A stretch of DNA of 64,000 nucleotides, taken from assembly GCA_964187785.1 (NCBI GenBank), contig OZ076409.1, forward strand, positions 22,818,001 to 22,882,000. The letters run 5' to 3'. The DNA comes from Amphiscolops sp. MND2022. Its lineage: Eukaryota. This document shows, in pieces, positions 1,747-42,332 of this stretch (within the stretch, counting starts at the first letter, position 1; every line of letters begins with the position of its first letter). The notes under the pieces are model-generated. The model was not told the origin of the DNA. It ran no database searches and saw only the letters and a program-made list of their open reading frames with translations. A program made the position numbers and the translations under genes.

Positions 1747-2080
1747 TAAAAATTGATAAACGAGTTTGTAAAGTTGAGATTGCCTTCTGTTCAAATGTCA
1801 TCCTAATTAATTTTCGTGATGTTTTTTATTTATAGTCCTTGGCTGCAACATTACGAGTTTGATTTTTTAAATTTAAAAACACACTTGTGATAAGGAAGTG
1901 ATTGTTTCAATCATGATTGAAACAATCACTTCCTTATCACAAGTGTGTTTTTAAATTTAAAAAATCAAACTCGTAATGTTGCAGCCAAGGACTATAAATA
2001 AAAAACATCACGAAAATTAATTAGGATGACATTTGAACAGAAGGCAATCTCAACTTTACAAACTCGTTTATCAATTTTTA
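1747..2080. repeat. Perfect spacer-less palindrome, 167-bp arms
   Basis: TAAAAATTGATAAACGAG...TTTCAATCA|TGATTGAAA...CTCGTTTATCAATTTTTA; centre between 1913 and 1914; no mismatch found by eye. Confidence 0.95.
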
Positions 2081-3389: not shown

Positions 3390-3594
3390 TGTTATAGACT
3401 CGCAGAAAAGATAGAATTAAGAAGTTCAAATTAAGAAGAGAGTGTTCTCATGAAATGAGAGTACAGAGTATCAGTATCTATACGTGTAGCAACGTAGGCA
3501 ACAACTAAATGATGGGGATGTTCTATATAGTTCATAGGCAGGTACTTCAATGTTCAATTAAGTCTGTCTAGACTATGTAACTTTCACCTCTACA
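3390..3594 (-). repeat. 3' LTR of element 1 (205 bp)
   Basis: TGTTATAGACTC...CCTCTACA, direct repeat of 9098-9288. Confidence 0.95.
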
Positions 3595-3607
3595 CTCCCC
3601 CCTCTTC
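3595..3607 (-). promoter_or_regulatory. Polypurine tract of element 1
   Basis: CTCCCCCCTCTTC on + is a purine run on -, abutting the 3' LTR. Confidence 0.85.
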
Positions 3608-3801
3608 GGGATTGTGGTACCATTCTTGAGTGTCTCAGGCGTTCTTGTTTTGGGCCTTCTGTTTGTTGGCTGTGTTTCGGATGAAGTGTATAACCTTCTT
3701 CTGGCTTTTTGGCTTCGGATCTAGAATAATTCAAAGGTTGTCAAAAGTATTCTATGCCACCCATTTTATTAACTCTTTTTGCGTTTTTGATTCTATTGGA
3801 T

Positions 3802-6800
3802 CTACGGATCCCTCCCCCCCACGATTTTTGGCTTGTTCTCCCCGACCTCTATATTGAATTCTACTACACCTTTATTGACTGAATTTGAGCCTTTTTGTGG
3901 TGATCCAGTTGGGATTTGGTCAGGGTCCTTGTTAGTACGGTGTTGTGCCAATTCCGTACTGCAACTGACGAGTGGTAGGATTTCGGGTGTTTGGCTTTCC
4001 TCCGATTTGGCCGCTGTCTCGTCTGTGTCGTTGGTATTGTACTTTATGTCTGCCGTGACGGTGATTTCATTGTCGGTATTGTCCGTGAGCGGTGGTTCTT
4101 CCGCTTGGGATGACTGACTGTCGAAGATTATGGTGACTTCCGGGATTTTTTCGGTCTGTTTGGCGGGCATCATTGGGAATGTTTCCGAGCTGGTCGATTG
4201 TTTTTGTAACTCTGATTTTACCCTTTTGTGGGTGTCGCATAGTTCTCCGTTGCTGAATCGTCCGCATCTTGTGCACCGTTTGGTCGGTTTTCTGGTCTCC
4301 TCGGTTTTCTTCAATGGCTGAAATTTTAAAGGGTTAGATGCCAGATTCTTATGAATGATTTTACCATCAGTAGTTGTTATGATATGTTTAGTCTCTCTGG
4401 CTGCAGTTAAAATTTTATCCGTTTTAAATCTACATTTTAGTGCATTGGGTTTGTTTTCCTTTTCGAAGAATTGGTAGCTTTTAAAATTGTCGCTTACCGA
4501 TCGTCCCCTCTTTCTTGACTCATTGAGTATCAAGTAATCGGCCAGTTCTCCATCTGAGTAGTGAATCGTAAAAACTTGCAATTCGGCAGGCTGGGCTAAA
4601 ATGTAATTTGTTAATGTTTTCTTCCAATTCGTTAATAGGCAATTTGGTTGACCAATCAGATTAGTTATCGGCGTGCGTGGTTTTCTCCCGTAGTGTAATT
4701 GGAAAGGTGTCATTTTCAGAGTGCTATGTTGTGTTTGCCTAATAGTTTTAATTGCCTTATTGACACTTTCTTCAAAGGTTAAATTGTCTTCTAAATTGGC
4801 TCTAGTTAGCGACTTAATTGTGTGAATTGTTCTTTCGACCAATCCGGTTCCCGTATGTAAATTCGGTGTGCACCGTATTCTTGTAATATTTTCGCCGTTG
4901 CAGTAGTCTTTAAATTCTTTGCTTTTAAAGCAACTACCGTTGTCGGTGCGTATAATTTGTGGCGTTCCGTTATCGGCACAATATTTTTTTAAAAATTTTA
5001 TTACGGTTTGAGAGTCCGTGTTTTTACAAATTCGGGCCGTTGGCCATTTGCTAAAACGGTCGATCGCGACTAAAATATAGACGTTTCCGCGTGATTTTGA
5101 TTTTATCGGGCCAGCGAAGTCTAGTTGGATTTCTTGTCCAGGTTCGGTTAAAATTTCGAGTCTATTTGTCTCCGATTGTGGTATTTGTGTTTTTAAGTTC
5201 TTACCTGCGGTTCGGCAGCTGGGGCAATTTTCAGCTTTGTCTCTGATCTCACGATGGATGCCCGGCCACCAGAAGGCCTCCGCAGACTTGTCCATCTTGT
5301 TGATAGATACGTGGCCGTTGTGTAGCATGGTGATCATCGTCGGTCTCATCGCTTCGGGAATAACTATGCGGTCATTGTAAAAAAGTAATCCGAAGCGGGT
5401 TTCAAGGTGTTCGCGATGTGGGCGATATGGATAAAAGATGCCGTCGCGGTTCCCAGTTTCCAGGGCGATGATAGCGTATAGTATCTTGGTGTCTTGTGCC
5501 GTTTCCTCAACCAGCATTGGCAGATCCATTGCAAATTCTCTTTCGGCCTTTTTAATCTTCTCTGCCGTTTTTTCGTTTCTGTCTTCTGGCAGCGTATTTC
5601 GTTTAGCGGCTTGTTTTAGTCGGATTAGATTAACGCTTTCGTGTTTTTTGAACTTTTTCAAAATGTTTGTTGGACATTTCTCCGTTTTCAGGTGACTAAT
5701 TTGGCTTTCGTTGTCGGAAGACACATTAATCCAGGATTCGTGGATGTTTTCGTTGAATTCTCTCAGGGGTAAAGTCCCCAGGCTTTCGCAATATTTGAAG
5801 AATCGATTGTAGATCATTATGTTGATTCGTTCAATTTCTTTCCTCTCTTGTTGTGAAGGACGGTATTGTTGTATGCGTTCGTTTTTGCTGCCTTTTCCTA
5901 CGATTCCGGTACGATTAGGTTGTAGGATTTTATTTCTTTCGGAGCGAAGTTTACTTGTTTCTGGGGAATGTCCCCGTTTTTTGAAAATAAATTCGATGTC
6001 AATTCCATTGACTTTATCCATTTTTGACATTTGCGGTACTTTATTCTCAAAGTTTGTACTGTTTGACGGTTCAATGTTGTTTCGCGGTGAGAAAGTTTGA
6101 ATTGAGTCTCTGTTGTTGGTTTGTTCACGTGTTTGTTTTGTGCGTTGTGGTTGGTCGGATTTTGATGTCGATGACTGTCGTTGGATGTGTTGCGTAATAC
6201 TGCCGTTCGTGCGATTAAACTCGAATAAGCCGTATATCTGATTTACTACGAATTCCTTTTCGGCTTCTTTTTCTTCGTTCTCGCATGATGTTTCCGCTTG
6301 GCGTTCAGTGAGTATCGGGTGTCGGCTTAGATAATCCGTTAATGGAATATTCTTGCCTGCGGTGTATTGCACATTCACATCGAAATGGCTCAGACGGTCT
6401 AACCACCGTGTGAGTCATGCACTATATTGTTTATGGGCTCGATTGCGCTTTAATAATGGTTGTAACGCTTGATGGTCGGTCAGGAGGTTTACTTTTTTTC
6501 CGTATACGTAATACCTGAAATATTCGAGGCCCCAAAAGACGCCTAATAGTTCCAGTTCGTTTATGGCGTATTTTCTTTCACAATCAGTGAGAAATCTGCT
6601 GGCAAAGGCTATTGGCCTGAAGTTTTCATCCTCTTTTTGCCATAGGGTTGCCCCTAATCCGGTATTACATGCGTCAGTTGTTATAAAATTATCTTTTTTT
6701 GAATCAAAGTGTGCTAAGCATGGTGCTTCCGTTATTTCCTTTTTTAATTGTTCGAAATCGTCATTTTTTTTGTCCATTCCCATTTTGTGCCTTTTTTCAG

Positions 6801-9075
6801 CAATCTTCTCATTTTGTCTGTTTTTTTGGATAGATTGTTCAAAAATTTTGATAAGTGTTGTATCGAGCCCAGAAATGATTTTAGTTCCTTGGTGTTTGTG
6901 GGTGCTTTCAATTTCGTTATCGCTTCTGTTTTATCTTTAATTGGTTTCACTCCGTTTTGGTTTATTTCGTATCCCAACCAGGTTAGTTCTTTTATAAACA
7001 GTTCTGTTTTTTTTCTCGCTCGCTCGGTAACCTTTTTCTTGTAGTTTCGACAGTATTTCGCGTAATTCTCCTTCGTGTTCTTCTATTGTTCCGTTGGTGA
7101 CACAAATGATGTCATCTAACCAGACTGGTGTTTTGAATTCTAGGACTTTATCAATATGTTCTTGAAACACGGTGGGAATATCCGATAGTCCGTAAAATCC
7201 CTTTTTAAATCGGTAAAGTCCGGTAAAATCACCGCCGATAATTGAAAACACGCAGTGTCGTGACGCTTCTGGAGATAGTTTTGCCTGTCCATATGCGTAG
7301 TCTAGGTCGATTTTGGAATCCATATCTCGCCGTTGTTTTTTGTGATTTTTGTGGATATTTTGCTGATTAGTTCTTCCATGTTTGGCATTGTTGCCTTTCT
7401 GTTTATGCAGGATTCGTTTAATTTCCTTGAGTCCAGTGCAATTTTTACTGATTCATCTTTTTTGATCGTTATGACCGCGGGTGAAACGAAACAATTTTCG
7501 GTCGTTTTTTCGGCTTTTTCCAAGTGCCCTTTATCAATTAATTTTTTAAACTCGTTTTTTACAATGTTCTGAAAGTGTATGGGTACCGGTCTCCCCTTTT
7601 GTTGAATGGGTTTTGTGTCTTTTTTCAACTGAATGTCTATTGTCAGGTCTTTTATTGTGTGGTTGTTTTTAAAAAGGTTTTCAAATTCTTTGAAAATTTT
7701 CTCACCTTTTTCACTTGCAGTTATGTTCCGGATAATGTTTGTTTCCAGATTTCCGTGTAATCCGATTTCCAACTTGTCTAGCCAGTCCATTCCCAGAAGG
7801 GGTTGTGTGTTTTTCTTTTCCGTAATTAGGATGGGTAGTACTGTTTTTGTTTTTGTCCGTTCTGACTTCTACCATCGCTTCCCCCTGGAATTTGATTGGA
7901 TTTTTGTTTACGTCAACGAAACATTTTGAAGTCGCTTTGATTTCTTTTGGATTGATAATTGGCGGGATTATCGTCACTGGAGAGCCTGTGTCAATAATGA
8001 ATTCTATTGGTTGTCCATGGACCAATAGAATTGTTTTGTAAAAATCCACTCGATTAATACCGTTGACGGACTGAATGTGATCAATTTCTGGCCATGGTTC
8101 GGTGTTGCTGCCCGACGATACTGCTTCGGTTATCCGCCTGACGGTCTTAGATTTGCAGACTTTGGCAAAGTGCCCCATCTTTTTGCAATTATTGCATTGT
8201 GATCTCCGTGCTGGGCAGACGTGTTCCATAGACCAGTTTGGTTTCCCGCAAAAGCGGCAATTTTTGTTTGAAGTTTTTCTTTTCTCGTTGAAGTGTGTTT
8301 TTCGCTTCCGTAATTGATTAGTATGGCCGATTTGTTCGGACGATGTTGAGCTGCTTGTGGAGTCTCTTTTGGCTTTTTTGATTTTGGGTTTTTTATCTCC
8401 GTATTTTCTGTTGTAGTTGTCTAGTTCTATGGTTTCCAATACCAATTGTATTTTCAGTGGGCCTTTTATGAAATTATCACGGGCTCTTTTGTCCTTTATG
8501 GTGGCTGCAAACTTGTATCTAATGATTTCTTCTGGTGTGACGTTGTTGAAGTCACATTTCCTTTCAATGTCCACCAGTCTTTTCCAATACTCATGCAAGG
8601 TTTCGTTTTCCTCCTGTTTCATATTGAAAAATTGTGCCCTGCTGTGGAATACATTTCTCGCTGGGAGGAAGGTTTTTTTGAATAATGTCAGCAGTTCTGG
8701 TAGTCTGACATCTTTTAGCTCTCGGCCCCATTGACCTCTCATAATTTCATGTTCGGCCTTTGGGCCCAGTGCCCAGATGACGTCGCCTTTTATGTGGTAC
8801 GCTGTATGTTGGTCCATGTTCAGTGGCCCCCTCTTCAGTGATCTCGTCTAGATTTCGGTCGTAAGTCAGATGGATATACTCCGATATTTGTTCCCACCAC
8901 ATCTTGGGATTAATCTTGGTGAGATCGGTATCTCTGTCTGATAAGATTGGGATTTTGTACTTACTTTTTTCGGCTTCTCGGACATTGTTTGGTTGTTTAT
9001 TGTTCTCGTTGACTGTTCCGATGTCATCGGCTCACCTTCCGTTGGGTTGGGGTCGGTGTTGTTGATTTCCAGCAT
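3802..9075 (-). pseudogene. Frameshifted gag-pol of element 1
   Basis: Gag with CRFCGKPNWSMEHVC and CNNCKKMGHFAKVC knuckles; protease FIIDTGS; RT WLDDII; RNase H TTDACNTG...NELE...TDHQAL; integrase HNGH...CPSC, LDFAGP, RTDNG, VERTI. Split over ORFs 8866-9081, 7711-8817, 7302-7790, 6937-7323, 6744-6977, 6415-6783 and 3802-6378. Confidence 0.93.
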
Positions 9076-9079
9076 GTTC

Positions 9080-9097
9080 AAATTGCTGACTGCGCCA
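9080..9097 (-). promoter_or_regulatory. Primer-binding site of element 1 (probably tRNA-Ser)
   Basis: TGGCGCAGTCAGCAATTT on - directly after the 5' LTR; complementary to a tRNA 3' end ...GACUGCGCCA. The tRNA identity is from memory. Confidence 0.75.
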
Positions 9098-9288
9098 TGT
9101 TATAGACTCGCAGAAAAGATAGAATTAAGAAGTTCAAATTAAGACGAGAGTGTTCTCATGAACTGAGAGTACAGAGTATCAGTATCTATACGTGTAGCAA
9201 CGTAGGCAACAACTAAATGATGGGGATGTTCTATATTACTTGAATGTTCAATTAAGTCTGTCTAGACTATGTAACTTTCACCTCTACA
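9098..9288 (-). repeat. 5' LTR of element 1 (191 bp, 14-bp deletion)
   Basis: Matches 3390-3594 but lacks AGTTCATAGGCAGG and has a few substitutions. Confidence 0.95.
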
Positions 9289-9316
9289 GTTCCCTCAAAC
9301 TCCTAAGTTGACAAAA

Positions 9317-9481
9317 ACGTAGCAACGTAGCAACGTAGCAATGTAGCAACGTAGGCAACAACTAAATGATGGGGATGTTCTATATAGTTCATAGGCAGGT
9401 ACTTGAATGTTCAATTAAGTCTGTCTAGACTATGTAACTTTCACCTCTACAGTTCCCTCAAACTCCTAAGTTGACAAAAAC
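9317..9481. repeat. Tandem duplication of the outer LTR half plus flank, headed by (ACGTAGCA)n
   Basis: Second copy of ...GTAGGCAACAAC...CTCTACA-GTTCC-CTCAAACTCCTAAGTTGACAAAAAC. Confidence 0.9.
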
Positions 9482-11964: not shown

Positions 11965-12695
11965 TGTAACGATCACTTATCGAGTCCGAGAATTCGAAAT
12001 TGTTTTGAAAATTTCGTTCAAGGGACTAGATGCCCTCCCCTGAAAAGTCATATTCCGCTGAAGGATACCGTGTCTTTACCAAAGGACCTGTCCCCGAAAA
12101 TGAAAAGGATTTGAGCGAGAGAAGCAGAAGAGACCCACTACGAACTAGACGACTACAGGAATCCGCAAAACCTGTCAGAAAAAGACTCAAATTTCGGCCG
12201 ATACGGACTAAACTCTGTTCCCATCGGTGCTTTCTTTAGCAGATCATTACAATATGTTGTGACCACCAAAATGAGTCAACTAGCTTGAACAAGCATCCGT
12301 GCTTGTGTCCCAGGCTAATTGCTGCCCCAAAAGTGCTAATTATGCAGTAAATTGCGTATTTTGTCGTGGTAATAGCTCGTGAGCTACATATTTCGATTTC
12401 CTCTGTAGCTACAAGAGAACACGATTTTCTTTTTCCACCTCACCTGTTTTTAAAGGCTATCTAAGCGTTGGTTTCGAAGAAAAAGCGTAATTCGCGTTGC
12501 TGATAGCAATTACAGACTGGATCAGGCCGGCGAGCACTTCACAAGAAGCGGAATCCTCCTCTGACGGGACAGTTTTTACCCGAAGGAGGCAAAATGAGCT
12601 CATGGTCATGGGCGCCTGTCCCGGGCAAATACCCATATCATGTGTTCCTCTTACTCTCATGGTTACGGCGACAGTGGTGAGAGCCTGTCGTTACA
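11965..12695 (+). repeat. 5' LTR of element 2 (731 bp)
   Basis: Direct repeat of 27808-28539; about 7 substitutions and 1 indel counted by eye. Confidence 0.97.
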
Positions 12696-12711
12696 TAGAG
12701 ACATCATTTTT

Positions 12712-12728
12712 TGGCGACCACAGAGGGA
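12712..12728 (+). promoter_or_regulatory. Primer-binding site of element 2 (tRNA-Arg-like)
   Basis: TGGCGACCACAGAGGGA, 16 nt downstream of the LTR end; resembles the complement of a tRNA-Arg(TCG) 3' end. Confidence 0.8.
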
Positions 12729-15608
12729 TCGCTTCGAAGTGCTTCCCTTAACGGTTTTAAAAGAGCCGACCCTCTGGTGATTGACGCCAAGTACGACCCG
12801 ACTCTGACGAGGAGAAGACAGAAGCAGAGTTTTCTATGTTTTTACCCTGTATGTACATTGTTGAAGGCTTTATGCCTGGTGGTTAAAGGTAAATTTAGTG
12901 AAAAAGCGCTGTATGTTGTAATTCTGAAGCTTTTTAGTAGTTAACAGGTAACAGTCGAAATAACCAACCCTCTTAACAGGTCACTCTCTAAAATTGGTCT
13001 AGCAAGCCGTCAAAAGGCTGCTAGAGGTGTTAACAGGTATTTTCCAGCCTTTTTCAGCTTTTTATGACCAATGAAGCGAGTGTTGAGAAGAGGATGATCC
13101 TTGCTCAAAAGTATCTTACAACCTGCCGGAATGGAGTTGTACGACTCGCCTATCCCATTTCTCGTACAGGCTACCCAGAAAAACGAAATTTGGTGGCAAC
13201 GTACTACAAACACTGACCTATCTAGAGATGCAACCCGTTTGTCTCTAACTGTTCTGGGTGACGAGTAAGAGGAACGGAAAGATACAACTCGTCGATCCAG
13301 GTTGTATGAATACTTTGAGTCAGGTTGAAAATTTTTTTTTTGATTGCTCAAAATTTTATGTGTAATCACTTGCCGATGTTCTTACGAGCTTTCTGCAAAT
13401 AGGCGTGTGCATTTGCACCTGTTTTGTGCGAAAAAAGTGCGTTTTTTCATGTATTTTCGACGAAAAGTGCCTAATTTGGCCACTTTGAGGCGAAACATCT
13501 ACATGAGCGCGAGCGCTCTTGGTGCCAGCCACACATTTGCAGAAATTAAATAAAAGTAGCTCAGAACTCTAATGAGTTCACAAAAACCAGGGCCAACTGC
13601 TCAAAGTTGCCCAAAAAAGCACTTAGTGCGAATCTTGTGAGAGAAAACCCCGTTTCGGAAAAATTAAGCACTTCTAGTAGTGGGGAGATTGATGTTGGAA
13701 CTTCCAAACATCCCCAATGTGCCACAATTATGTCAGGGCACACCAGCCGGTACCTAGAGCTGCCTGTTTCGGTAATTATTGTCACCACCTGCCACAAAAA
13801 CCTACAGAAATTGCAATTTTGAAGTTTTCCAAAAGTGTTTTTGAATGGAACTTGAACCGATCATTGACTAACATTCCTATACCAAGAACATTCCGCGGAC
13901 TGTTGCTTCCAGTTTATTCGAAAAATTTAACGGTCAAGAGTGAAGACCGCACCCCAAAATTCTTTTTCAGTGTGAAGAAAAGTTGAAAAACGTTGATTTT
14001 TAGTTAGTTTCAGGAGTGTCCGCATATATAATTAAAACCCCCTGGACACTCTGTCTTTTTGTTAGCTAGGAGCTTCCCAGCTCTCATTTCCTGTTTTTAC
14101 ATAAAAAATAACGCATAGTGCTGAAAACCGCGTCAAAAAATTCCTTTTCAGTGCTGAGAAAAGTGGAAAAACGCACTGAATCTGACCAAATTTCCACAAA
14201 ACCGGACTGTCCAATTGTTAGGGTCGGGTCATAGATTCCCGAACCCTAGCTGAAAACTGGTTGCATTTTCGTAACCACCACAAAAAATAATACTAGTGCC
14301 AAAAATTTGGTGAGCCTAGCGCTAACCAAAGTTGAGAAAAGCTCTCTGACGTTTTGACATCAGAACGAGCTGACCTAGCCGAAAATTTCCAAAACTATAA
14401 GACCGACAGTGCCTCAAACCTAACAGGCGCGGCTAATTGAGGACTTGTGGCAGTGCTGTGACTAGTGGGGCAACACGTTGACCTCATCTTGCCTGCCGTA
14501 ACGTTTGTAGTGTCGACCCTCTTAGCCTATTTGTGAAAAAAGTGTCAAAAAAAGGACTGTTGCTGAAATAGTGTCTGAACTCAGTAGAAACCCTAGGAAA
14601 GCTCGCGAACTTTCATCGGACCATTGAACCAGCATTGTGGGCGCCCACTGACAGCGCCTACTAAGTTTCGAGCCAATCGGTGTTGTATTTCTTGAAAAAT
14701 TGACTGAAAAGTACTGCTCAAAAAGAGGTGCAAAAAGGCAAATTTTCCGAAATTTTTCAGAAATGCCTGAACACCTTATTGGAAAAGTGGGGATAAATTG
14801 CAGCCCACCATCGTGACTTGTGCTAGTTGTTGCATTGTTAGCGAGAATACCGAACCGCTAACTCATACTGGTGCCTAGAAATTGTATAATAAGCGTGCAT
14901 TTTGACTCCTACTGAGACATAGGTGTACCGCACGTCTATACCAAGGCAAAACAGTGCACAACCCTCGGAGCTCAAATCGGTGCTCAATTCCGTGTACCTA
15001 TATGTGTGTAAGATACTCTGGTCTATTTTGAGCCAGATCCGATTCTTCAGGAACGAATTTGAGCCACTTATATATTTTTGGTACTCTCCGAGAAAATTCA
15101 AGATTTGTTGTAAACGTCGCATAATTGTCTCAGCGAAAAGGTAGCACCAATCTGAGCTCATTTTCTGAGCTTGTGGTTTAGTAACAACTGCTTGAGTAAG
15201 TTTGAACTCGCTACGACCATTAGATGTGGTTTCGACCCATTCGAGACGTGCGTATCATCATTCTGGCTCAAGTCTCCACCGAGGCGAAACCCGGTCTTCC
15301 ATGTAAAAAATTTGCAAAAACTCCCTTGTCTAAACGCATGTTAGTGAGTCCATCACTTAATGTGAATCGTGATATTTTTTCAAGTACTTTATACAATCGA
15401 ACATCACGTACCAGACGATGAGTGAATTTTGAAAGACTCCAAAAATCTTTGAAACTATCAAAAGAACTTAAGTGTGTGTGACATAGTTGCCTCGTGAACC
15501 CTAAATGCACGGTTTTCGACCCCACGCAACGGTATCAACGCGCAGTAAACGTTTCACGCCGAAGCGACTCCCTCATCGAATTTCGACTATTCCGAAATAG
15601 GCTAAGTC

Positions 15609-18300
15609 ATGAAAAACAACAACTTCCGCAGTCTTTGGAATTCGATCACAAAGACATTAAGTCGTTCGAACACCCATCGGCACTCACATCTTTCAAAGAG
15701 GGGTAGGGAAGCTGCCTCACTACACGCCAAAACACCGAAAACACCGGAACCCGTGGCGTGCGAGACAAACCTCAGTGCAATATCAGACCTAACCTCAGAC
15801 CCCAGGGAGGAAGATTGGCCAACTGATGACAGTTTTATTATGGAACCCGATTTTTCAGACCCTATGTCAGACAACGCATCAGAAGAATACCAGACCAAAC
15901 AGGTCACCAGGACGGCAGACGATATCGGGGGATCAGCCGACGAAACAGGAAGTCAGGCGCACACGTCCAAATGGTTGCAAGAACTGACCAAAGTAGCTGT
16001 CACACCTTTCGGTACTGACGAAGCAGGAACATGGCCCAACTCCAACAGAACAAATGCTGGGGAAGAAGCTGAAATGAGTTGCTTGAATGCTACTGGACAA
16101 TTCAAGGCTCCCAGCATGGCAAGCGAGAGCACTGCGAACACGGCAGAGATATTGCAACAAATGTCTTATGTCGGGGGTATGAATTATGCCAGAGCGCGCT
16201 TGCAAGAAGCCACTGCACCCCGGCCATCGGGAAAAAGTAGACAAATACGGCCTCCAGCTCTACTAGCACAGACTGGCACTACAGGACCTCATGGCGACTC
16301 GCGCTCGTCCTCACCTTCATCAAAAGCTGTGTCTGGTCGATCTTCAGCATACCGAGCTGTACATGAAGCAGCAAAGGCGCGTAAAGCCCTGCTGGAAGCC
16401 CAAGCTGGTGTGAAGCAAGCTGCTTCTCAACTATCTGAGCGCAAGGCGAGGTGCGATAGAGAGCATCAGGCAATTGTGGAGGAGATTGAAGCTGTGCAAT
16501 CTGAGTTAAGGACTTCCACTGAGCGACAAATGCAAGGACAGGAAGTACAAGCTGCTCGCATGGATGCCATGGGTTAACGAATGGCTGAAATGAAGGATAT
16601 GATGGCCCAAAGAGAGGTACGTATGGAAGCCCAAATTCAGGAGGTGTGCTCGCAAGTACAGGCGATGGGCACTGCGCTAAAAAATGTCCCGCCTCAATCA
16701 ACTCTACCAAACAACACCATCAAAGAACTATTGCAGGAGACTGACATGTCCCTACCAAAGCCTGTGAAGAGTGTTTCACTCAAACCAAAAGAGAGTATAA
16801 TCACCACGACGAAACCCTCAGGTTCCAAACAACCTATGGCGAGATAGGCACCCCTACCTCAACCCCTTGTTTCGAGTGGAGAAGCTGTATCAACGTCCAC
16901 GAAGCTTATCCTTCCAGCACAAACGGAGTTTATCCCGCCAATAACAGAGTCTCACGAAAAGGAACCAACGTATGAAGCAATAACCCTTGAAACTTCGAGC
17001 ATGGGTATCACAGGTCTACGAGAACCCACGTGCATCAACGAATTGACCAACACCACGAGTACCTTCCAAACAGCAAACGCGACTTTGGGAGAGTCAAATG
17101 CAGAATTCCAAACTGCGGACACTGGATTGCCCCCGGGCAATCCGTGCGCAAGCAGCACCCGACGCAGAGAAGTGATCATCTCGGAGAACACCGATGATTC
17201 AATTAACTCTACACGAGGTAGCAGTGTTCCACCACCGGCAACAACTGAAGAAGCACCAATATCACCGGAACAACTCAGATTCACTGAAGCGATATCAAAG
17301 GCAATGTCCAAAGAACTGGCGCCATTAATTGCTAATCGTGATCAGACGAGAGTCCGTCCTACAGTGTATAAAGGTACAAAAGACAGAACCGTTGACGGGT
17401 GGCTTCCACTGATGAAACGCTTCCTGGAAAGGGTACATGCAAAATCATCAAACGTCGACAAGGCATGGGCAATAATTGATCACCTAGAAGGAGAAGCAAG
17501 AAACTACATTATCAATAAGTCAGAACCTGAACGAGATACACCAGACAAGGTGTTCGCCCTCCTAACCAGCAGATTCGGGACAGGTGGCAACCATATGCAC
17601 GTCCGGCAGACCTTTATGTCTCGCGTTCAACAGGAGAAGGAGGATTGGATGCAGTTTTTGGACGCATTAGAAGGCCTGCGCACCCAAGGTTTTCCAGATG
17701 AGCCTATCACTACCCGTCGTTACGAAATCCTGCAACGCTTCATAGATGGTGTGAACGTCCCTACACTGCGACGAGAATTGGCTGTGGTGTACGCGGCGGA
17801 GACGTATCTGACTGAACCGCCCACTGTGGAGTCCTTGAGATTCACCACGCGGCAATTGCAGCGACACCGTCCAACAACGTCAAAGCCCTATGATCCTAGA
17901 TATGCGATGAGATCAAGGCCTCACCCTTTTGTGCCAGGAAAAGTGGTTCATCCAGCACCAGGTCTGCCACAAAATGTGCTCCCTCCAAATCAAGGACAAC
18001 AACACGAGGCAAAGCCCCAAATGGCCCCACCAGCTCCAGCGTCGGTACAACAAGCTGCACCGCCCCAACAACCAGCGAGGATAGTTCCCCCAGGAGCATG
18101 CTTCAATTGTGGATTACCCGGTCACTTCGCGCGGGAATGCCCAAATAAGGATCAAGCAAGGAAACCCATTGCTCGCGCTGCGCCAAACGAACGAGTAAAT
18201 CTTTGCGAAAGTAATGTGGCCTCGGCATGTTCCGGTCCTATGTTCTGTGTCAATTGTGGTATGACTGAACACTCAGCATCACAATGCCAAAACGTTCCAA
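15609..18300 (+). pseudogene. gag region of element 2: long N-terminal extension, capsid-like core, two CCHC knuckles
   Basis: ORFs 15609-16577, 16581-16847 and 17001+ share one frame, separated by single stops at 16575 and 16845; PTVYKGT...VDGWL...HLEGEAR capsid-like motifs; CFNCGLPGHFAREC (18099-18140) and CVNCGMTEHSASQC (18246-18287). Confidence 0.88.
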
Positions 18301-18829
18301 TACATGAAGATTTGGCCTACAGCTTCTGGGCTGCACAGCCATCAACCCCTCAGACAGTGAGCGATAGTGAAATGGTTCTCACGTTACGCCCAGCTGAAGC
18401 CGTTCATGTGGCAACCTCTCTTACCGTTACGTGCGGTAAAATTCAAATCCAGACGAGTCCAGAGCCAACTACTTTCGACCCTTCTGGACGCACGATAATG
18501 TCCGCCAGATTGCTACTGGCTATTGAGAGGGAAACACGCCCAGAACTCACCATCGACGCTTTGATCGAAGAGATGACTACCAATGAAAATTATCAGCAAT
18601 TGACTCTACCACAGCCCGGAAAGTGGCAAGTCAAGGGAGTCACTTCAACCTATCATGCCTATTCTCCTGTTCCAGTTAAAGTTTGCATTGATGGCGTCGA
18701 CATGCGTTTTGGAGTGACTGTAATAACTGATGCGTTTCCTCCTGGAATTTGCTTGGGACCTCGAGAGCTACGCTGCTACAATATTGATGCTCAAGAACCA
18801 TCTGGTGAAACGAGAATCGATGAGCGTGC

Positions 18830-19160
18830 GTCGCTCGTAGTTTCATTCATGGTCCCTGATGATGTACCCATACCACTGCGCGGATTGATAGACACTGGAT
18901 CGGGGGTATCTATCCTCACGTTCTCGGCCTATAACCGTGTCGCCGTGCGCACTGGTACACTTCTGCGACCCTACAATATTGATTTGTACGCGGCGAATGG
19001 AAAGACGATCAAAACTTTTGGTCTAGCAGAGAAAGTCAAATTCCAGCTGGGAGGTTACGAGTTGGAAACTAACTTCGTAGTGGTTGACGATGCTATGGGA
19101 GTGGAAGACTTTCTTCTAGGCAGGAACTTCCTCCGAGCCTATCAGGTCTTGGTAGACCTC
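18830..19160 (+). CDS. Retropepsin-type aspartic protease domain
   Basis: GLIDTGSGVSIL (DTG at 18891) ... FLLGRNFL. Confidence 0.92.
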
Positions 19161-19898
19161 ACTGCGATGAAAGTCATTGTCCGAGCCCCCTCGGAACCAG
19201 TATGGTATCACGCCCATGCGCAGGTAAGTGATGAATCGCTTAGCTCGTCGGTAGCTACGGCAGAGGACATAGTTTTGCAACCCTTTGAACGCGCCATACT
19301 GCGCGCTAAGTTACTTGCAAGTGATCTAGAACCTTTCATATTCCGTGCTGTCTTAATCAATTTTCAAACACCTAATCGAATGTTGAAAAACGCCATATTT
19401 TTAGAAGACACTGTGGCAACCGTGGGAGAAACAGGCTTCCTTTACATCAGTTTAGGAAACCTTACTAGCAACGTCCACTGGCAGCGGGTCAAAAAGGGAA
19501 CCCTCTTGGGAACCGCAATACCCGTGACCATGGTCCATAGAGCCATCCCCCAAGTTGTCCCCGGACAAGCAACTGAAACTCAGCAGTCAAATGCAAGTTA
19601 TGTTTGTAAAGTATATGAACAGATGAATCTTGATTCTTCATCTGAATATAGCTCTTCATCTGAATTTGAGTTTTTGTCTTCTACTGATCCCTCGGAGCTA
19701 AGTTTGTCAGAACGCGAAATAAAAAAACGCACCGATCCGGCACTAATGGCCCCAATACCGGGCCCGGAAGCGCAACTCGACGAAGTACGCAATTTATGGG
19801 GTCCGGCCGCCAGCGACACGCTCGATAAACTTTTAAAAGAGTTTGACGATTTGTTCATGAAGTACAAGGCTGACATTGGTAAGTGTAAAATTGCTAAG

Positions 19899-21190
19899 CA
19901 CCCGGTGGAAGTAGAGGCAGGGGCTATACCCCACCGCGAAGGTGCACGACGAATGTCGCCTGACAAAGCAGAACGGGCCAATCAAGAAGTTCGTGATTTG
20001 CTAGCTTTGGGAATGATACAACCTTCTCTATCCCCTTGGGCGAGTGGTATTGTCATGGTCAAAAAGAAGAGTGGTGAATTACGATTCTGTTGTGACTTTC
20101 GACCACTCAATGAAGTGACTATCAAGGATGCATATCCTCTACCACGAACTGACGAGAGTCTATCTCGATTAGGGAAGGCAAAGATCTATACCAGCATCGA
20201 CTTAGCATGGGCATTCTGGCAAATTCCTGTCCGAAAGGCTGATCGTCAAAAGACTGCCTTTGCTTGTGAACTTGGATTATTCGAATGGCGGCGCATGCCC
20301 TTTGGGATGTGCAATGCATCAGCGACATTTCAGCGGGCAATAGCGCGAGCGCAACAAAGAATAGTCAATCGTGAAGGAAGTATGGTGATGGCCTATATCG
20401 ACGACATCGTGATAGCTACTGAAACCATCGAAGACCACATGGATAGGCTTCGCGAAGTATTCCAGTGTCTACGCGAGGCCGGTTTCAAGATGAGAGTATC
20501 CAAATGTGATTTCATGAAGTCAGAAATCAAATACTTGGGTCGAGTAGTATCTGCAGATGGTATCCAACTAGATCCTAAGGCTGTCACGAAATTGAGAGAT
20601 TGGGATATTCCGCGCACCAAAACCAAACTACAGAGCTTTCTGGGTTTTGGCAACTACTACCGCGATTTTATCCCCTGGCATGCTAAATTGGTTGCCCCTC
20701 TGCACGCGATGACGGGTACAGGCTCTTTCTTTTTGTGGGGGGAGGAGCAGCAACGAGCCTTCAACGGCATCAAAGTGGCACTAATGGAAGCCACAGCTTT
20801 GGCACAACCCGACACCGAAGGCGAATTCGTGCTAGACACAGATGCCAGCGGCGTAGCAATATCAGGTATTCTTCACCAATGGCAGGGACCACCCGAAAAC
20901 CGCAAATTACGACCAATTGTGTTGGGAAGCAAAAAGTTGACTTCTACACAAGCCAAGTATGGAGCACCGAAACTGGAAATGTACGCTGCATACTACTTCA
21001 TCTTGAAGAACCACAGCTATCTCTGTCCCCGAAAATTTACATTGAGAGTCGATAATCAAGCCCTCTCATGGCTGAAGACATATTCGATGGATCAGGCGAT
21101 TATTGGTCGATGGATAGTGGCTCTAGAAAAAAATCATTTCAGCATTGAGCATCGACCCCGAACACAACATCGAAATGCCGATGGCCTTAG
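19899..21190 (+). CDS. Reverse transcriptase and RNase H domains (Ty3/Gypsy)
   Basis: LRFCCDFRPLN, MPFGMCNA, YIDD (20394-20405), YLG; FVLDTDASG, KLEM, RVDNQAL, NADGL. Confidence 0.97.
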
Positions 21191-21899
21191 GAAACGAACC
21201 AACGACTATAAAAAGCATGAGAAACAGCTACAAAATCTACCAGCAATTGCTAACAAATGGAACTTCCTATCGCAAGAAGAATATGACAGACTCCCGCTAG
21301 CCCCATGGTTTGATGTTCAAGGACGCAAGATACCGAATCACCCCGACCTGCCTACGCACTTGCAGAGATTGGCCACCCAACACTCACCTCAAACCACAAC
21401 GATCGCTCCCACACGGAGAAGCGGACAAAGTAGACAAAGTGCGATCATGCGCGACAAAGCGATGAAAGCGCCTATGCCTACACTGCCCAAACCCGAATTG
21501 GAGATGCCTGCAGATTTCTATCCCGAATATCCCGAGGATTGGCTAGAATTAACCGAAGAATATCAACGGGACTACTTGCTTCCCACACATGCTGCCAATG
21601 TCCCATCAAGAACGACCTACCGTTGACTGGGGAGGAAAAGCAAGCGACTGATACCGCGCCCGAAAACGTGAAGCAGATGGCACTAGTAGTTGAAAGTGTA
21701 TCGATGGAATTACATGAACACGCAAATACAGTTCATGGATTGAAGGATCTCCTTTTGGCACAGAACCGCGATGTCCACATCTTGGCCATCAAGAAATTGG
21801 TAATGAAAGAATCAATAGATGACGACATATTTCCCGAGAACGTGCGCACATTCGCCAAAAATTATTACAAACAGAAGAAGAACCTCCTGCTGATTAACG

Positions 21900-23020
21900 C
21901 CAACGGCGTGTTGTGTGTGAGATATCCCAAGAATCAGAGAGCACTGCATGAACGCCCATATATGATTGTGATGCCCCAATTATACCAGCATGAGATCTTG
22001 TTCAAGGCCCACGACGCGATGGGACATCAGGGTATCGCAAAGGTGCTGGCAAGGATACAAGAACGCCACACCTGGCCAGGAATACGCCGCACCATTGGGC
22101 AATACGTTAGCCAATGCATAACCTGTCAACAGGTACGCGATAAGCCTGGTGATGTACGATTTCACTTGAAGAACATTCAGAGTGGCTACTTCAATGAGTT
22201 GGTTCAATATGATCACTTGAAAATTTGTCCCTCAGATGATGGCAACACTGGAATCCTGGTCATCATTGATCACTTTTCCAAACTCGCGGAAGCAGTACCA
22301 TGCAACCACGACGAGTACGATGCAGCAACCACCTCGAAGATATTGCTGCAAAAATGGTTTGCCCGACATGGTACACCAACAAGGATGCAATCAGACAACG
22401 CTCCAAACTTTACCGCGGCAGTATCTATTGAGTTCATGAGAGCAGCACAGGTGACTAAGGTTACCTCAACCGCTGGTCACCCTAAAACTCAAGGACTGGT
22501 GGAACGACAAAATAGAACATTGCTTACCCTGTTGCGTGTGTTTTGCTCCCGACGAATGCGAGACTGGGACCAATACTTAGATGAAGTGATGGGTGCGTAT
22601 AATTCTACACGTCATGCAACGACTGGGTTTTCCCCGTATATGTTGACGAGAGGCATGGAAAAAGCAATACCCCTGACCTTCCTGTACCCAGAATTCGCCA
22701 CTCAGTCATTCGAATCGCACGAGGCATATGCGGAACATGTCTTGGCCTGACAGCAAGAGATCCATGACTTAGTTCGTCGGAATACACATCAAGCCCAACA
22801 ACGACAGAAATTGAAATACGACCGAGCTATTCGTGCTAAAGCTTATGAAGTGGGCGAACCTGTTTGGGTCTTCTGCCGATACATTCCTCAAAAGGGATCT
22901 CCCAAACTGATGAGAGCTTGGCGCGGTCCTCACAAAGTAGCACGAGTGTTACAGGAAGGACGCGTCTACATACTCGACACTGGTCAAAAGTTACATTTTG
23001 AACGACTAAAACCGCATCAC
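21900..23020 (+). pseudogene. Integrase (HHCC, DDE, GPY/F) with an in-frame stop at 22748
   Basis: HDAMGH...CITC; YDH, IIDHFSK, SDN, GLVERQNRT; WRGPHKV...HFERLKP. Confidence 0.95.
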
Positions 23021-24329
23021 GGTGGTCCAACAGAGTGGGCCGCAATCCCTGCGCACAACGGTGAAGTCGCTATCATTATGGATCCAGACCCAGAGCAGTC
23101 TCATGAAGATATTCGAGATGATGCATCACAACCTTCCTATCGTGCGGAAGAACCACTGTCGGAAGCCAGCAACGTCTCCTTGCCTTCCCGACAAAGACAT
23201 TGGATGGATACTCGACTGCGTACTCGTACACGCGCTGGTGGCAGTCGACTACATTACCAACAGTTCGATCATTCCGAAACGGAATCTGAAGACGAACGCT
23301 CTGATGTACTTCTATCAAGCGCTCAGGTGAATCCCGACGAGAGTGTGATTCTGTCGTCACTTGTGGATGAACCCGTGCCTATCCTTGAAATGCCGATCTC
23401 GCCATTACCTGCTAAGGAGGCTCTGTTCTCAGAGAATGAAGCAATACCTGACGTCATTGAGAACACCGAGAGTCCTCCTACTCAGGCATCTGCCCCTACT
23501 CAGATACCTACCAAGAATTCTAGCATTTCTTTAGCCGGTACGTCTGCTCCACTGTTAACGAACCCATCTCTCACGGATATGCTGAGTAATTTCCCCATTT
23601 GGCCATTGATTGACGATAGTGTTCCGAATTCACCCTTAGAGAATGATGGTAACGAATCGCTAATATCCGATGGTCAAGAAGAGTTAACTCCCCCCATAGT
23701 TATTCCAACCAACAACACAACCATAGCAGTAAAGCTTCCTGGTGTTCCCAGAGGACATCAACACAGCAGACCACGAAGACATCCGCCCGGCAGAGCAAGG
23801 CTGCGAGCCTCGCTGCCGCGTGGCCATCAACAAACAGGCGCTGTTAGGGGAGCTCGCAAGAGAGGACGCCCCAGAGGCAGACCACCTCAAGCAACACGTA
23901 CTGAACCCAATGCCTCCACCCGTGTTCATCATACCCCATCTGTGGATACTGATTCTTCTGCTCCTAGTGCAGCAGTCACCTCAGATCAAGCGCAAACGCA
24001 GGAGTTGCCTAATACTGGCTATGGCCTACGACGTAATCGTGCCCCCAGATACCGCTGTGGAACATGTGGCCTACGAGATTGTAAATGCAATAATCTGGTC
24101 CACGCGGACTTCCCAATTAGACCCCGGGGAGTCTTACTGACACGTGAGAAGGAGACGCCACTCCCAAACGGCACAGTCGACCGTTTGACCATTCGAGCCG
24201 AGAAGACGTACACTGGGCTACAACGCAGTGATAACCCGTATCCTATAGACTTTATCCTATCCAAGATGAAAGGCTCGACGGTAGCGAAGGCCCCATGTCC
24301 GAGATTCAAGGAATGGACTTATGATCTTC

Positions 24330-25409
24330 GCGGTCTTGAGTTCACACTGCCTGTTACTGTTCCTCCATTACCCGCTAATATTGCTTTCGGTCCCTTTAAC
24401 TATGAACGAGAACCCATTCAGATGGTACGTTGCATTCCAGCTGACCTCTTGTATGATAGGTATAATGTCGTTGCAACGCCAGGGGATGTGTATCAACCAA
24501 CAACTCATTGGTGGCTATTGGTCACCGCCCCTCGCGCTTCTGATTTGGTTGACCCTTTAACCCTGCACACTTGTCTCGAGAGTTTACGAACCATGGCCTC
24601 TCCTAACAAAATAACATGTTTCCACGTCATCGACTTGTATCGCGGCAAAGTCAAGTTTGAGTGGTGGTTGGAACTTATCATCGCGATCTTATCGAGTTTC
24701 CCTCGAATCCGCTTTCTCGACAGTGGACACATTCTTTTCCACGACCCACTTCACTCCAATCTGCCTTGCACGCGCTGGATACATGGTCCAGGGCAAACAT
24801 CGATAATCAATCCTTGCCTCGCTCGGTGTGGCAAGACTTGGGAACGATTAAGGGCTGTCTACCGGCTTCCTACGATGATGGCCTCTCCAATGATCCTGGA
24901 CGAGAACTGGTATATCATGGAATCGTGCGACCTCAACTGGTCGACTACACACAGTATGCCAGCACGGATTTCCTACAAGCTTCCCATCATGTTGTTTTGT
25001 GTGCCCCGCGAATCTGGAGACTAATTCTGCCGCCCTTCGCTACGTAATGCGTGAGCATGGAGCCGACACCATATTTCGACTCCGATCGGAAGTTGGAAAT
25101 GTATTGACGCTCCCTGTGTCTATGAAGAACGACAAACCCCAAACTATACATTTATTGATTACGCGCGCCACGCCCCGTTGCCCCATGATAGCTGATACTC
25201 TTTTCGTATGTCTGGAATATTTGAAAACGTTACTCGAACGCCTAGAAGCCACCGAGGTTCATTTTGCTATCATCGATCCCGAGCGCCCGATACGTAATCT
25301 CTTTGATTTTTATACCTGCTTAATGGACGCGTTCGCTGATACACCTTTGTCTGTGGTATTACATGATCGCATTTACGTTTCCATCGCGAGCATCGCTAGC
25401 TTTCCGTGA
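24330..25409 (+). pseudogene. Two tandem TARG1/OARD1 (Poa1p)-like macrodomains at the Pol C-terminus, with 2 frameshifts
   Basis: By-eye alignment to TARG1 (GDLF..HCIS..FG..GEV..YLITK..L..SL..F..I.V); frameshifts at ~24720 and ~25007 join ORFs 22811-25024, 24661-25047 and 24999-25409. Confidence 0.7.
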
Positions 25410-25558: not shown

Positions 25559-26903
25559 ATGTATTGCACTGCAAATGATCAACACGCAGTCAACTTGCGC
25601 TCTTTCAGAGACTTGGTGATGAATCACGGAGACAAAGCTGATGAAGGAAGTACCCCCACGATGTTCCAATGAATCACCTGCAATGGGACAGCGCATATAT
25701 GACACTGCGCGTGTTCAGCGAACATCTCAGGTCGCTTTCATTCGCGACCGCCTTGACCAAGGTCTCTCATCCGCTACTGTGGCTGGAGTGGCAGCGATAA
25801 TTGCACAGACGGAGTCCCAGACCCAAGCTCCAATGCTGACCATCTCAATCACGTCTGGTTTTCCTGGGTTTCAGCGGTCCATGACCTTCCATGAAGGAGT
25901 GTGGTTTGGTCATGATTTGACTCATCACTTCACTGACGATCGTGCTGCGATTTCCTATAGTTTACCCAGTGGCGGCGTCCACCAGACCCATTCTTTGCAG
26001 ATTCCATCTTGCCCTCCTCCACCACCACCGGTACCTGCATCTCAATCAGCCGCGGGTGCCGGAGAGCCCCCGGGCTCTCAGGCGCGCCCGCCTGCACCAG
26101 CGCCTCCTGATATGACGAATAGACCGTTGGCTGAACAGGCAGTTATCTCAGCCTTGCAAGCTGTCGCCATTGACCCACATTATTCTGACTTTATGACGTC
26201 CATGGAGCGATGCTGGCCGGAGTTACGCCAAATAACCCTTCCCACAGTCACAATTCAGAACACGAGTGCCCTCACTGCGCCATCCGCACTGACTGTTCCA
26301 CATGTGAACCCGCTGTCTGAACAACCGGGACATTCCCGCACAGTCACTATGGAACGCAGTCGCTCATCCTCACGCTCCTCATCTTCTCACAAGGGGGGAG
26401 GAGAGCGTCGTCCTGCTTCCCGAAAAAGGAATGATCGTTCACCGACAAGGGCAAGCACAAGTGCAATACCGCCAATGGCTGTTCGCGACAGCCCGTCGAG
26501 TAAACCACCACCGGATAAGAGAGTCTCCAACGAAAAAACCACGCCAGCATCCATAGAAGTACCCATGACTGTCAACGCATCTGATCACACAAAAACAATG
26601 GTGTCGGAAGCACCCGTGCTTCCTTCGCCGCCACCGAGCCAGTCCACTGAAGGACAAGGAATAATGCAACCACTGCCACCCTCACAACCGACATCGCGTG
26701 AATCGCTAGCACAAAGGGCGATTCCCAAACCATCGTCGTCAAAGCAGCAGCAAAGCAAACCCACAATCGGCTACCAAGGGACACCCCAGGCGCAGAGAAC
26801 CGTAGAGGATCATTGTCCGAGATGGAAGAGAAGAAGAGCACTTCGCCCAGGGCGCGCCACTCCTCCGCCACACAATGAAGCGAAGTCCAAACATCACCGT
26901 TAA
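25559..26903 (+). CDS. Additional ORF of element 2 in the env position; unknown function, Pro/Ser-rich C-terminal part
   Basis: 420-aa open frame 25641-26903; probably starts at MYCTANDQ (25559) via a 1-nt frameshift near 25635; no signal peptide or TM segment apparent. Confidence 0.7.
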
Positions 26904-27807: not shown

Positions 27808-28539
27808 TGTAACGATCACTTATCGAGTCCGAGAATTCGAAATTTTTTTGGAAATTTCGTTCAAGGGACTAGATGCCCTCCCCTGAAAAGTCATATTCCG
27901 CTGAAGGATACCGTGTCTTTACCAAAGGAGCTGTCCCCGAAATTGAAAAGGATTTGAGCGAGAGAAGCAGAAGAGACCCACTACGAACTAGACGACTACA
28001 GGAATCCGCAAAACCTGTCAGAAAAAGACTCAAATTTCGGCCGATACGGACTAAACTCTGTTCCCATCGGTGCTTTCTTTAGCAGATCATTACAATATGT
28101 TGTGACCACCAAAATGAGTCAACTAGCTTGAACAAGCATCCGTGCTTGTGTCCCAGGCTAATTGCTGCCCCAAAAGGTGCTAATTATGCAGTAAATTGCG
28201 TATTTTGTCGTGGTAATAGCTCGTGAGCTACTTATTTCGATTTCCTCTGTAGCTACAAGAGAACACGATTTTCCTTTTCCACCTCACCTGTTTTTAAAGG
28301 CTATCTAAGCGTTGGTTTCGAAGAAAAAGCGTAATTCGCGTTGCTGATAGCAATTACAGACTGGATCAGACCGGCGAGCACTTCACAAGAAGCGGAATCC
28401 TCCTCTGACGGGACAGTTTTTACCCGAAGGAGGCAAAATGAGCTCATGGTCATGGGCGCCTGTCCCGGGCAAATACCCATATCATGTGTTCCTCTTACTC
28501 TCATGGTTACGGCGACAGTGGTGAGAGCCTGTCGTTACA
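27808..28539 (+). repeat. 3' LTR of element 2 (732 bp)
   Basis: Direct repeat of 11965-12695. Confidence 0.97.
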
Positions 28540-41390: not shown

Positions 41391-42332
41391 CCCGTACTGA
41401 GACTCCATTCAATCCCATCGATGGGCATCGAAGGGCCCTTTGCGTCCCATCGATGGCCATCGCAACTTTTTCCAATGAACATCGATGGGATTTGAATTAG
41501 ATCATGGGGGCACTTGTGGAGCATTTTAGGGTTAAATATATCTAATTTTAACATACTCTCATTTCTTTTTGAGCCTGATTAAGCTTTCTCGAGCCTGGAA
41601 ATCACTTATTTCGGAGCCTTGTCCTTGAATTGTTTGAAAAAAAAAGAAAAACCTGGCAAAATTGCAATTTTTCGCATGAAAATGCGATGGAATCGAGCTT
41701 CAATTGCTGAGAAAACAATCTGCTTGTGAGAAGAAAAAAGATCTGAAATATGCAGAAATTTGACTCTAAAAATACGTATTTATATCAAAAAATTTGGAAG
41801 TTTTTCTGTGAAAAATCAGAAAAACCTGGCAAAATTGCCATTATACGTATCAAAATGCGACGGAATCAAGAATTCCATTGCTGAGAAAACCATCTGCTTG
41901 TAAGAAGAAACAATATCTGAATTATGCAGAAATTTGACTGTCAAAATACGTTTTTGCATCAAAAAATTTGGTTTTTTTCCTTGGTAAATCAACAGAATCC
42001 GGTTTTTCACAAAGATAAATAATATGGATAACTATGTATAACTTCATTTCCGAATAAAATATTTGGGCATCCTCGAAATCCCAAACAAAGCTTAAATAGA
42101 CTGAAAAACTTGAATGGCGAGAAAAACTTGAACATGGCCAAGTCGAACGAATTTTTGTGATCAAAAAATTCGATTCCCATTGATGGGTCATCGATGGTAA
42201 TCGATGACCCATCGATGGGATCATCGTTAGAAAAACCTCATCGATGCCCATCGATGGACCATTGATGGCCATCGATGGGCCCCATGGGACTGCGATGGCC
42301 ATCGATGAACTGCAATGGGATCTCAGTACGGG
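41391..42332. mobile_element. CCC..GGG MITE (CMC/EnSpm-like), copy 1
   Basis: TIR CCCGTACTGAGA; TA on both flanks; many CCATCGATGG subterminal palindromes; 2 internal ~172-bp units; inverted homolog at 62196-63340. Confidence 0.9.

Follow-up and report, generated by a model that had tools for sequence, protein, structure and literature searches.

The analysed window, a stretch of 64,000 nucleotides on contig OZ076409.1 of Amphiscolops sp. MND2022 (assembly GCA_964187785.1, positions 22,818,001 to 22,882,000 of the forward strand), contains a 16.6 kb long terminal repeat (LTR) retrotransposon of the Ty3/Gypsy type whose paired LTRs have TG...CA ends, and this element encloses a tandem of two protease-like domains on the plus strand. 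The upstream domain, here called unit A (18372..18797), is 142 amino acids (aa) long and reads as a degenerate retropepsin-like domain that carries a helical insertion and lacks the D-[TS]-G triad. Some three residues of linker (18798..18806, plus strand) connect it to the first strand of unit B (18807..19190, plus strand), the intact protease, whose D-T-G lies at 18891-18899 and which aligns to retroviral proteases from residue 142-143 of the tandem model described below, in which residues are counted from 18381. The A-B region is uninterrupted in the window copy and lies within open reading frame (ORF) 16848-21626. A preliminary description of this DNA had reported a protease-like segment at 18420-18786, and the motifs it quoted were all recovered at their places in this one open frame; a domain does lie there, but its extent is slightly greater, since a conserved hydrophobic N-terminal strand precedes 18420 and unit A is for this reason drawn longer on its 5' side.

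A profile search returned 74 long proteins, and the counts given here refer to 77 long homologous ORFs, the window ORF counted, which together with 7 distant fragments make 84 sequences in 14 groups at 85% identity. Because one of the 14 groups holds 57 of the sequences, these counts are not independent of each other. By its motifs and modelled fold, unit B is an intact retropepsin with a Ddi1/ASPRV1-like fold: it matches Pfam family PF13975 (E 2.5e-7) and, in a profile comparison, ASPRV1 (E 1.3e-10), and its fold superposes on human DDI1 with Z 13.2 and a root-mean-square deviation (rmsd) of 2.2 Å over 110 residues. The D, T and G are kept in 77/77 long ORFs (P0163, which has Asn there, had been removed before this count), and the G-R of the hydrophobic-hydrophobic-Gly-Arg motif in 76/77. 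Four residues past the catalytic Asp (window 18903-18905) there is a Gly in all 84 sequences.

Unit A is very probably a degenerate retropepsin homologous to unit B. The pseudo-retropepsin that the preliminary description had placed directly 5' of the active protease is supported by three partly independent lines of evidence, namely ESM Atlas neighbours, profile alignment with hhalign and fold threading, and is kept lineage-wide. Aligned with hhalign, a profile of unit A (49 rows) and one of unit B (66 rows) bring both of the C-terminal motif pairs proposed earlier into one block of 38 columns (E 3.4e-4, score 27.6), compared to 10.4 +/- 2.0 for 100 column shuffles (maximum 15.7), 11.5 for the reversed profile and 7.3-11.5 for control profiles made from Gag, reverse transcriptase (RT) and the post-protease domain. 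The match depends on the alignments used: it is weaker when the profiles are realigned separately (E 0.0053, score 22.3; 60 shuffles 11.7 +/- 2.6, maximum 20.6), and with near relatives only it lies within the shuffle range (E 0.063, score 16.2). Three distant A units match the catalytic loop of B and the helix following it (E 0.0059; window unit A, E 9.9e-5). Single-sequence BLASTP gives E 0.004 in a register that is at odds with the motif pairs, and blastn of A against B returned chance words alone and no DNA-level repeat.

An AlphaFold2 model of the tandem, made with a 68-row alignment, is confident in both halves (mean predicted local distance difference test (pLDDT) 86, predicted template modelling score (pTM) 0.61), the halves being about 20% identical. 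In a Foldseek search with this model a tethered human immunodeficiency virus (HIV) protease ranks third (276 columns, E 1.2e-6). With VIA-align, model residues 13-259 thread on a covalent HIV protease dimer (172 residues aligned, Z 7.1) and residues 13-278 on pepsin (200 aligned, Z 7.5), while B alone gives about 99; unit A contributes to the threading, as the aligned residues exceed what B alone can supply. The model is nearer to Ddi1 and the retroviral enzymes (Z 12-13) than to pepsins (8-9), and in a viral fold library it finds single-domain proteases and one target of tethered-dimer length. The ESM Atlas neighbours of unit A alone are unnamed clusters and several aspartyl-protease clusters, at 0.90-0.93 overall and 0.90-0.92 for the protease clusters, a neighbourhood that is graded a lead.

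Several results speak against this assignment or against the role proposed for unit A below. The ESM Atlas recognition value of unit A is 2265, just below the mark of 2300, with a low count of 112-143 of 256 features shared. Unit A alone has no protease family match in Pfam (0/27 aligned members), and in the PDB a search with its profile yields two unrelated matches (E 0.9 and 1.9) and no protease; being invisible to Pfam, it would be overlooked in routine annotation. Compared with the window copy, seven relatives are 36-60% identical in unit A, 64-85% in unit B, 81-91% in RT and 26-59% in the knuckle/linker region, so that A is little above the latter.

The tandem is a real, lineage-wide architecture. 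A search with unit A alone yields 11 proteins of 52-98% identity, and one with the whole tandem, at a threshold of E 0.001, 370 representatives, at least 37 of which span the A-B junction among the 150 listed. Unit A is present in 75/77 long ORFs, the other two starting inside B; P0009 and P0011, which end inside unit A, were excluded from the conservation counts, as were, from the counts of unit A, the unrelated P0143 (caulimovirus-type, with six repeated stretches), P0145 (two repeated protease stretches) and P0230 (a plant match). The domain is full length in relatives (139-142 of 142 residues aligned), is retained at 24-39% identity and occurs in dozens of ORFs that run without interruption for about 3000 aa; in 58 of the 75 long proteins a crude pattern test places Gag, RT and integrase motifs in one ORF. 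Its hydrophobic-hydrophobic-Gly (psi-loop) motif (18750..18758, plus strand) keeps the Gly in 75/75 long ORFs and 14/14 family representatives, and from the A Gly to the B Asp there are 45-46 aa in 10/13 representatives and 40-52 in the other three. A and B have been passed down together throughout the lineage, their spacing nearly unchanged. Trees built separately from 15 rows of A and 18 rows of B give the same groups, with longer branches for A, and in a joint tree all 15 A units stand on one side of a 99/97 branch, a topology that comes with a long-branch warning and that fits a single old origin of A rather than a recent duplication. Longer relatives of the distant member P0152 were sought among 1132 candidates and none was found, which is weak evidence, and a pattern scan of metagenome contigs gave 297 matches, none of them confirmed.

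None of the 84 sequences has D-[TS]-G in unit A. The corresponding region (18462..18479, plus strand) appears remodelled and contains a conserved Glu (18462-18464), found in 74/75 long ORFs and in 10/10 family representatives covering the site, and the Asp of a DPSG sequence (18477-18479), found in 73/75 near-clade long ORFs and 7/10 family representatives. The conservation of this Asp, which the preliminary description had singled out, holds in the near clade, with 57 sequences coming from one family, but fails beyond it: in three distant relatives the residue (D33) is Ser in two and His in the third. Of these, P0144 and P0152 share a conserved G-A-E-V motif, with Gln or Gly where the catalytic Asp would be, and P0141 seems to lack the loop. 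The first of the motif pairs proposed earlier, DPSG with DTG, is not established: one global alignment pairs the two at low confidence, another leaves them unpaired, and going by the strand and helix after the loop (model residues 39-49 in A, 177-191 in B) D33 falls at the Thr position unless indels are introduced. Counting from the preceding hairpin would instead point, on retroviral numbering, to E28. Other registers are possible besides the one that sets DPSG against DTG, and it is not safe to take DPSG for the catalytic loop. The two acids are conserved in the near clade, and unit A is best read, from its sequence, as catalytically dead across the lineage. The conserved Glu of A lies near the spot equivalent to the invariant Gly of B (18903-18905), an asymmetry that may mean that the two units have divided their tasks and that would suit an A-B pair.

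Whether the two units pair with each other is a separate question, on which the evidence is mixed. When A and B were given to ESMFold2 as separate chains, the complex score was 0.59, against 0.00 for the best of 3 controls, with at least 90% of contacts agreeing between runs and a partner pLDDT of at least 75, and with no interface given; in the same test unit A reached a pLDDT of 75-76 with B compared to 48 with an unrelated protein. In the calibration of this score 51/78 solved complexes and 2/108 mismatches reach the mark, and the range up to 0.60 holds 5/78 solved complexes and all 4 passing mismatches, so that 0.59 is to be taken as weak support for a predicted binding. The linker of about three residues resembles engineered tethers, and this shortness, with the near-constant A-B spacing, fits a tether. 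The complex score could also be explained by likeness to solved retropepsin dimers, and other observations must be set against pairing. In the AlphaFold model, which had been suggested as a check for an intramolecular pseudo-dimer, A and B are not packed in this way (rmsd 12-19 Å to tethered dimers and pepsins), bearing in mind that the construct missed the first three residues of the N-terminal strand of A and that a pTM of 0.61 leaves the domain orientation unsure. The C-terminal strand of A is polar where that of B is hydrophobic, unit B keeps a complete homodimer surface, and no obvious cleavage site is seen by eye between A and B. Finally, the window holds a second, smaller Gypsy-like LTR element on the minus strand (3390-9481, terminal repeats 3390-3624 and 9098-9481) with Gag, a knuckle, one protease and an integrase, and its protease has no unit A upstream, the A profile finding nothing there; A is therefore not a general requirement.

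The reading that we tentatively prefer is that unit A may serve as a pseudo-subunit that restrains B in cis, the active enzyme being B-B. It would be an old additional retropepsin domain, probably arisen by duplication, that lost catalysis and was retained as the tethered partner of the working protease. At the precursor stage A would pair in cis with the dimer face of B to give a one-aspartate A-B pair that is off. In many members a single ORF of about 3000 aa encodes both Gag and Pol, so that each Gag comes with a protease attached; A would silence that protease until its local concentration rises on particle assembly, when active B-B homodimers would form by displacing or releasing A. Premature activation of the HIV-1 protease is known to reduce particle yield (PMC13067793). 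Of the two options offered by the preliminary description, a regulatory pseudo-subunit is the better one; the regulatory step itself is inferred, its direct support being the weak complex prediction that gives no interface.

A somewhat unlikely alternative keeps the retropepsin fold of A and has it packed on B away from the active-site face, leaving B-B free, with A acting as an exosite, a folding aid or an A-A dimerisation module. Such an accessory role would agree with the modelled tandem geometry, which is unlike that of a dimer, with the dimer strands that B retains for itself, with the helical insertion in A and equally with a complex score that comes without an interface; it agrees less well with the retention of the psi-loop Gly and the N-terminal strand in A and with a spacing that matches a tether, and the uncertain domain orientation takes weight from the geometry. 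The other option of the preliminary description, that the tandem works as a single-chain bilobed protease of the pepsin kind, is improbable; the second carboxylate would then come from a relocated acid of A, either the conserved Glu or the DPSG Asp. The high conservation of both acids in the near clade, the Glu found in all family representatives covering its site, the tether-compatible linker and the weak complex support could all be read in its favour, yet an active bilobe is made unlikely by the missing D-[TS]-G, by the Gln or Gly that distant relatives have at the catalytic position, where their Glu comes four residues later, and by the unsafe register of DPSG, the Asp of which is Ser or His in those relatives. 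The model, moreover, cannot be superposed on pepsins with its two units held rigid, and family A1 requires an Asp motif in each lobe (PMC2761423). It is likewise improbable that this Gypsy lineage independently made a natural single-chain, two-lobed clan AA protease with pseudo-twofold packing, in which the near-clade Glu or Asp of A would complete an asymmetric site.

Two further explanations concern the nature of A rather than its partner. Quite improbably, A might be unrelated to proteases, being some other beta-rich domain or a dUTPase remnant that resembles B by chance. The missing Pfam and PDB sequence matches speak for this, as do hhalign probabilities of just 1-38% for A against B and a single-sequence model of A alone with a pLDDT of 32; to be set against this are the threading of both model halves on tethered dimers and pepsins, the proteases among the Atlas neighbours of A and the distant A units that match the loop and helix of B. 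A retroviral 'pseudoprotease' of historical standing turned out to be a dUTPase. For unit A a dUTPase origin was considered and rejected: 16 A sequences contain no motif 2, 4 or 5 pattern and one motif 3 pattern, and there is no Pfam match. Nor does unit A resemble the post-protease domain (E 0.18-0.37). It is very improbable, lastly, that A is a decaying, functionless relic of duplication; it does evolve faster than B, as seen from its lower identities and longer branches, but it stays full length with near-invariant positions across families, is kept in relatives down to 24-39% identity and is carried by dozens of long uninterrupted ORFs. Restraint of B by A in cis remains the reading that we would put forward, tentatively.

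The 5' LTR of the element around the tandem (11965..12695, plus strand, TG...CA) agrees with the 3' LTR (27808..28539, plus strand) in 726/733 aligned bases. A stretch of TGG resembling a primer-binding site starts about 16 bases past the end of the 5' LTR and does not adjoin it (window 12695-12730), and the flanks of the LTRs have just three bases in common, no clear target-site duplication being seen. The Gag-Pol frame (15609..21626, plus strand) comprises Gag, two CCHC knuckles, unit A, the protease, a post-protease domain, RT and RNase H; the copy is damaged, with in-frame stops at 16575-16577 and 16845-16847 and a change of frame near 21570-21620. A capsid region resembling PNMA lies in the long frame 16848-21626 (E 0.007, a match that falls short of the Pfam cut-off). 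Just 5' of unit A lie the two CCHC zinc knuckles of the nucleocapsid (18096..18290, plus strand), matched by PF00098 (E 3.3e-7, ORF aa 417-433) and PF14392 (aa 465-481). RT and RNase H (20058..21128, plus strand) are recognised by Pfam, and the best solved relative of the RT is that of Ty3 (E 2e-65); because its RT is closest to that of Ty3 among solved structures, the element is assigned to the Ty3/Gypsy retrotransposons. The zinc finger and core of the integrase (21974..22483, plus strand; PF17921, PF00665) follow 3' of RT-RNase H in the Gypsy order, and the order of Gag, then protease, RT, RNase H and integrase, fits this membership.

Other parts of the element and of the window are noted here for completeness. 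Between protease and RT (window 19215-19547) there is a beta-rich domain that is 33-68% identical in relatives and has no Pfam match; by eye it is like the degenerate dUTPase-like domain reported at this place in other LTR elements. Two alpha/beta-looking domains lie 3' of the integrase (window 24299-25406) and are part of the same ORF as Gag-Pol in the relative P0169. Neither has a Pfam match and the second has no PDB sequence match; by eye they resemble macro domains, and the pair may be another tandem duplication within the lineage. A Pro/Ser-rich frame of 426 aa between Pol and the 3' LTR (window 25623-26903) has no Pfam match. Outside the element, there is a perfect 167-bp inverted repeat without a loop (window 1747-2080), which could be an assembly artefact, and two related arrays of units of about 173 bp stand in opposite orientation about 20 kb apart (window 41500-42330 and 62090-63210).

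Among known systems, the single-domain enzymes of clan AA are closest to unit B. It is like the Ty3/Gypsy retropepsins, ASPRV1 and Ddi1/Ddi2 in its D-T-G, its hydrophobic-hydrophobic-Gly-Arg motif and its Ddi1-like fold, and it shares with the Ty3/Gypsy retropepsins the location between nucleocapsid and RT. Those enzymes carry a single protease domain in each chain and work as homodimers (PMC11402058, PMC2761423), whereas here a degenerate second domain is fused upstream. Giant Gypsy elements such as Burro, compared by description only, are similar in having a very long single polyprotein with extra domains, including a further domain between protease and RT, and in the part of the account available no duplicated or dead protease is listed for them (PMC6431247). 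A search of full-text literature, with Repbase, subscription journals and supplements outside its reach, found no retroelement with a tandem or dead protease. Functional analogies are offered by FLIP(L) with caspase-8 and by the HIV-1 transframe region, in which a dead paralog or an upstream segment modulates a protease that is activated by dimerisation. Neither is homologous to the A-B tandem, FLIP being a separate gene with another fold and the transframe region a short peptide without a protease fold. Retroelement proteases have been described as single-domain homodimers that are switched on by the clustering of Gag-Pol, and a lineage with what appears to be a fused dead twin would offer a natural, testable model of timing control in cis.

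The second comparison is with proteases that have two lobes in one chain. Retropepsins are homodimers of single-lobed chains, and pepsins are monomers whose two lobes each bear an Asp motif (PMC2761423, PMC11402058, PMC11957051). The A-B tandem is like pepsin A1 in combining what appear to be two clan AA-like lobes per chain, similar chiefly around their psi-loop motifs as in pepsin (PMC2761423), but it has only one Asp motif, shows no rigid two-lobe superposition and sits in a retroelement polyprotein. If A and B should nevertheless pack as two lobes, this would bear on the long-standing proposal that a retropepsin-like gene gave rise to pepsins by duplicating and fusing, and an active bilobe, if true, would be a living parallel of that duplication-and-fusion step. 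In layout the tandem is also like the engineered tethered dimers of HIV-1 protease (1lv1, 1hvc, 3ka2), which are among the top Foldseek matches and likewise place two retropepsin folds head to tail with a short linker. Those are laboratory constructs with near-identical halves, whereas the A-B tandem is natural and asymmetric and its model differs in orientation (rmsd about 18 Å); it would be a tandem of retropepsins, head to tail and of natural origin, for which engineered constructs are the only match found here so far.
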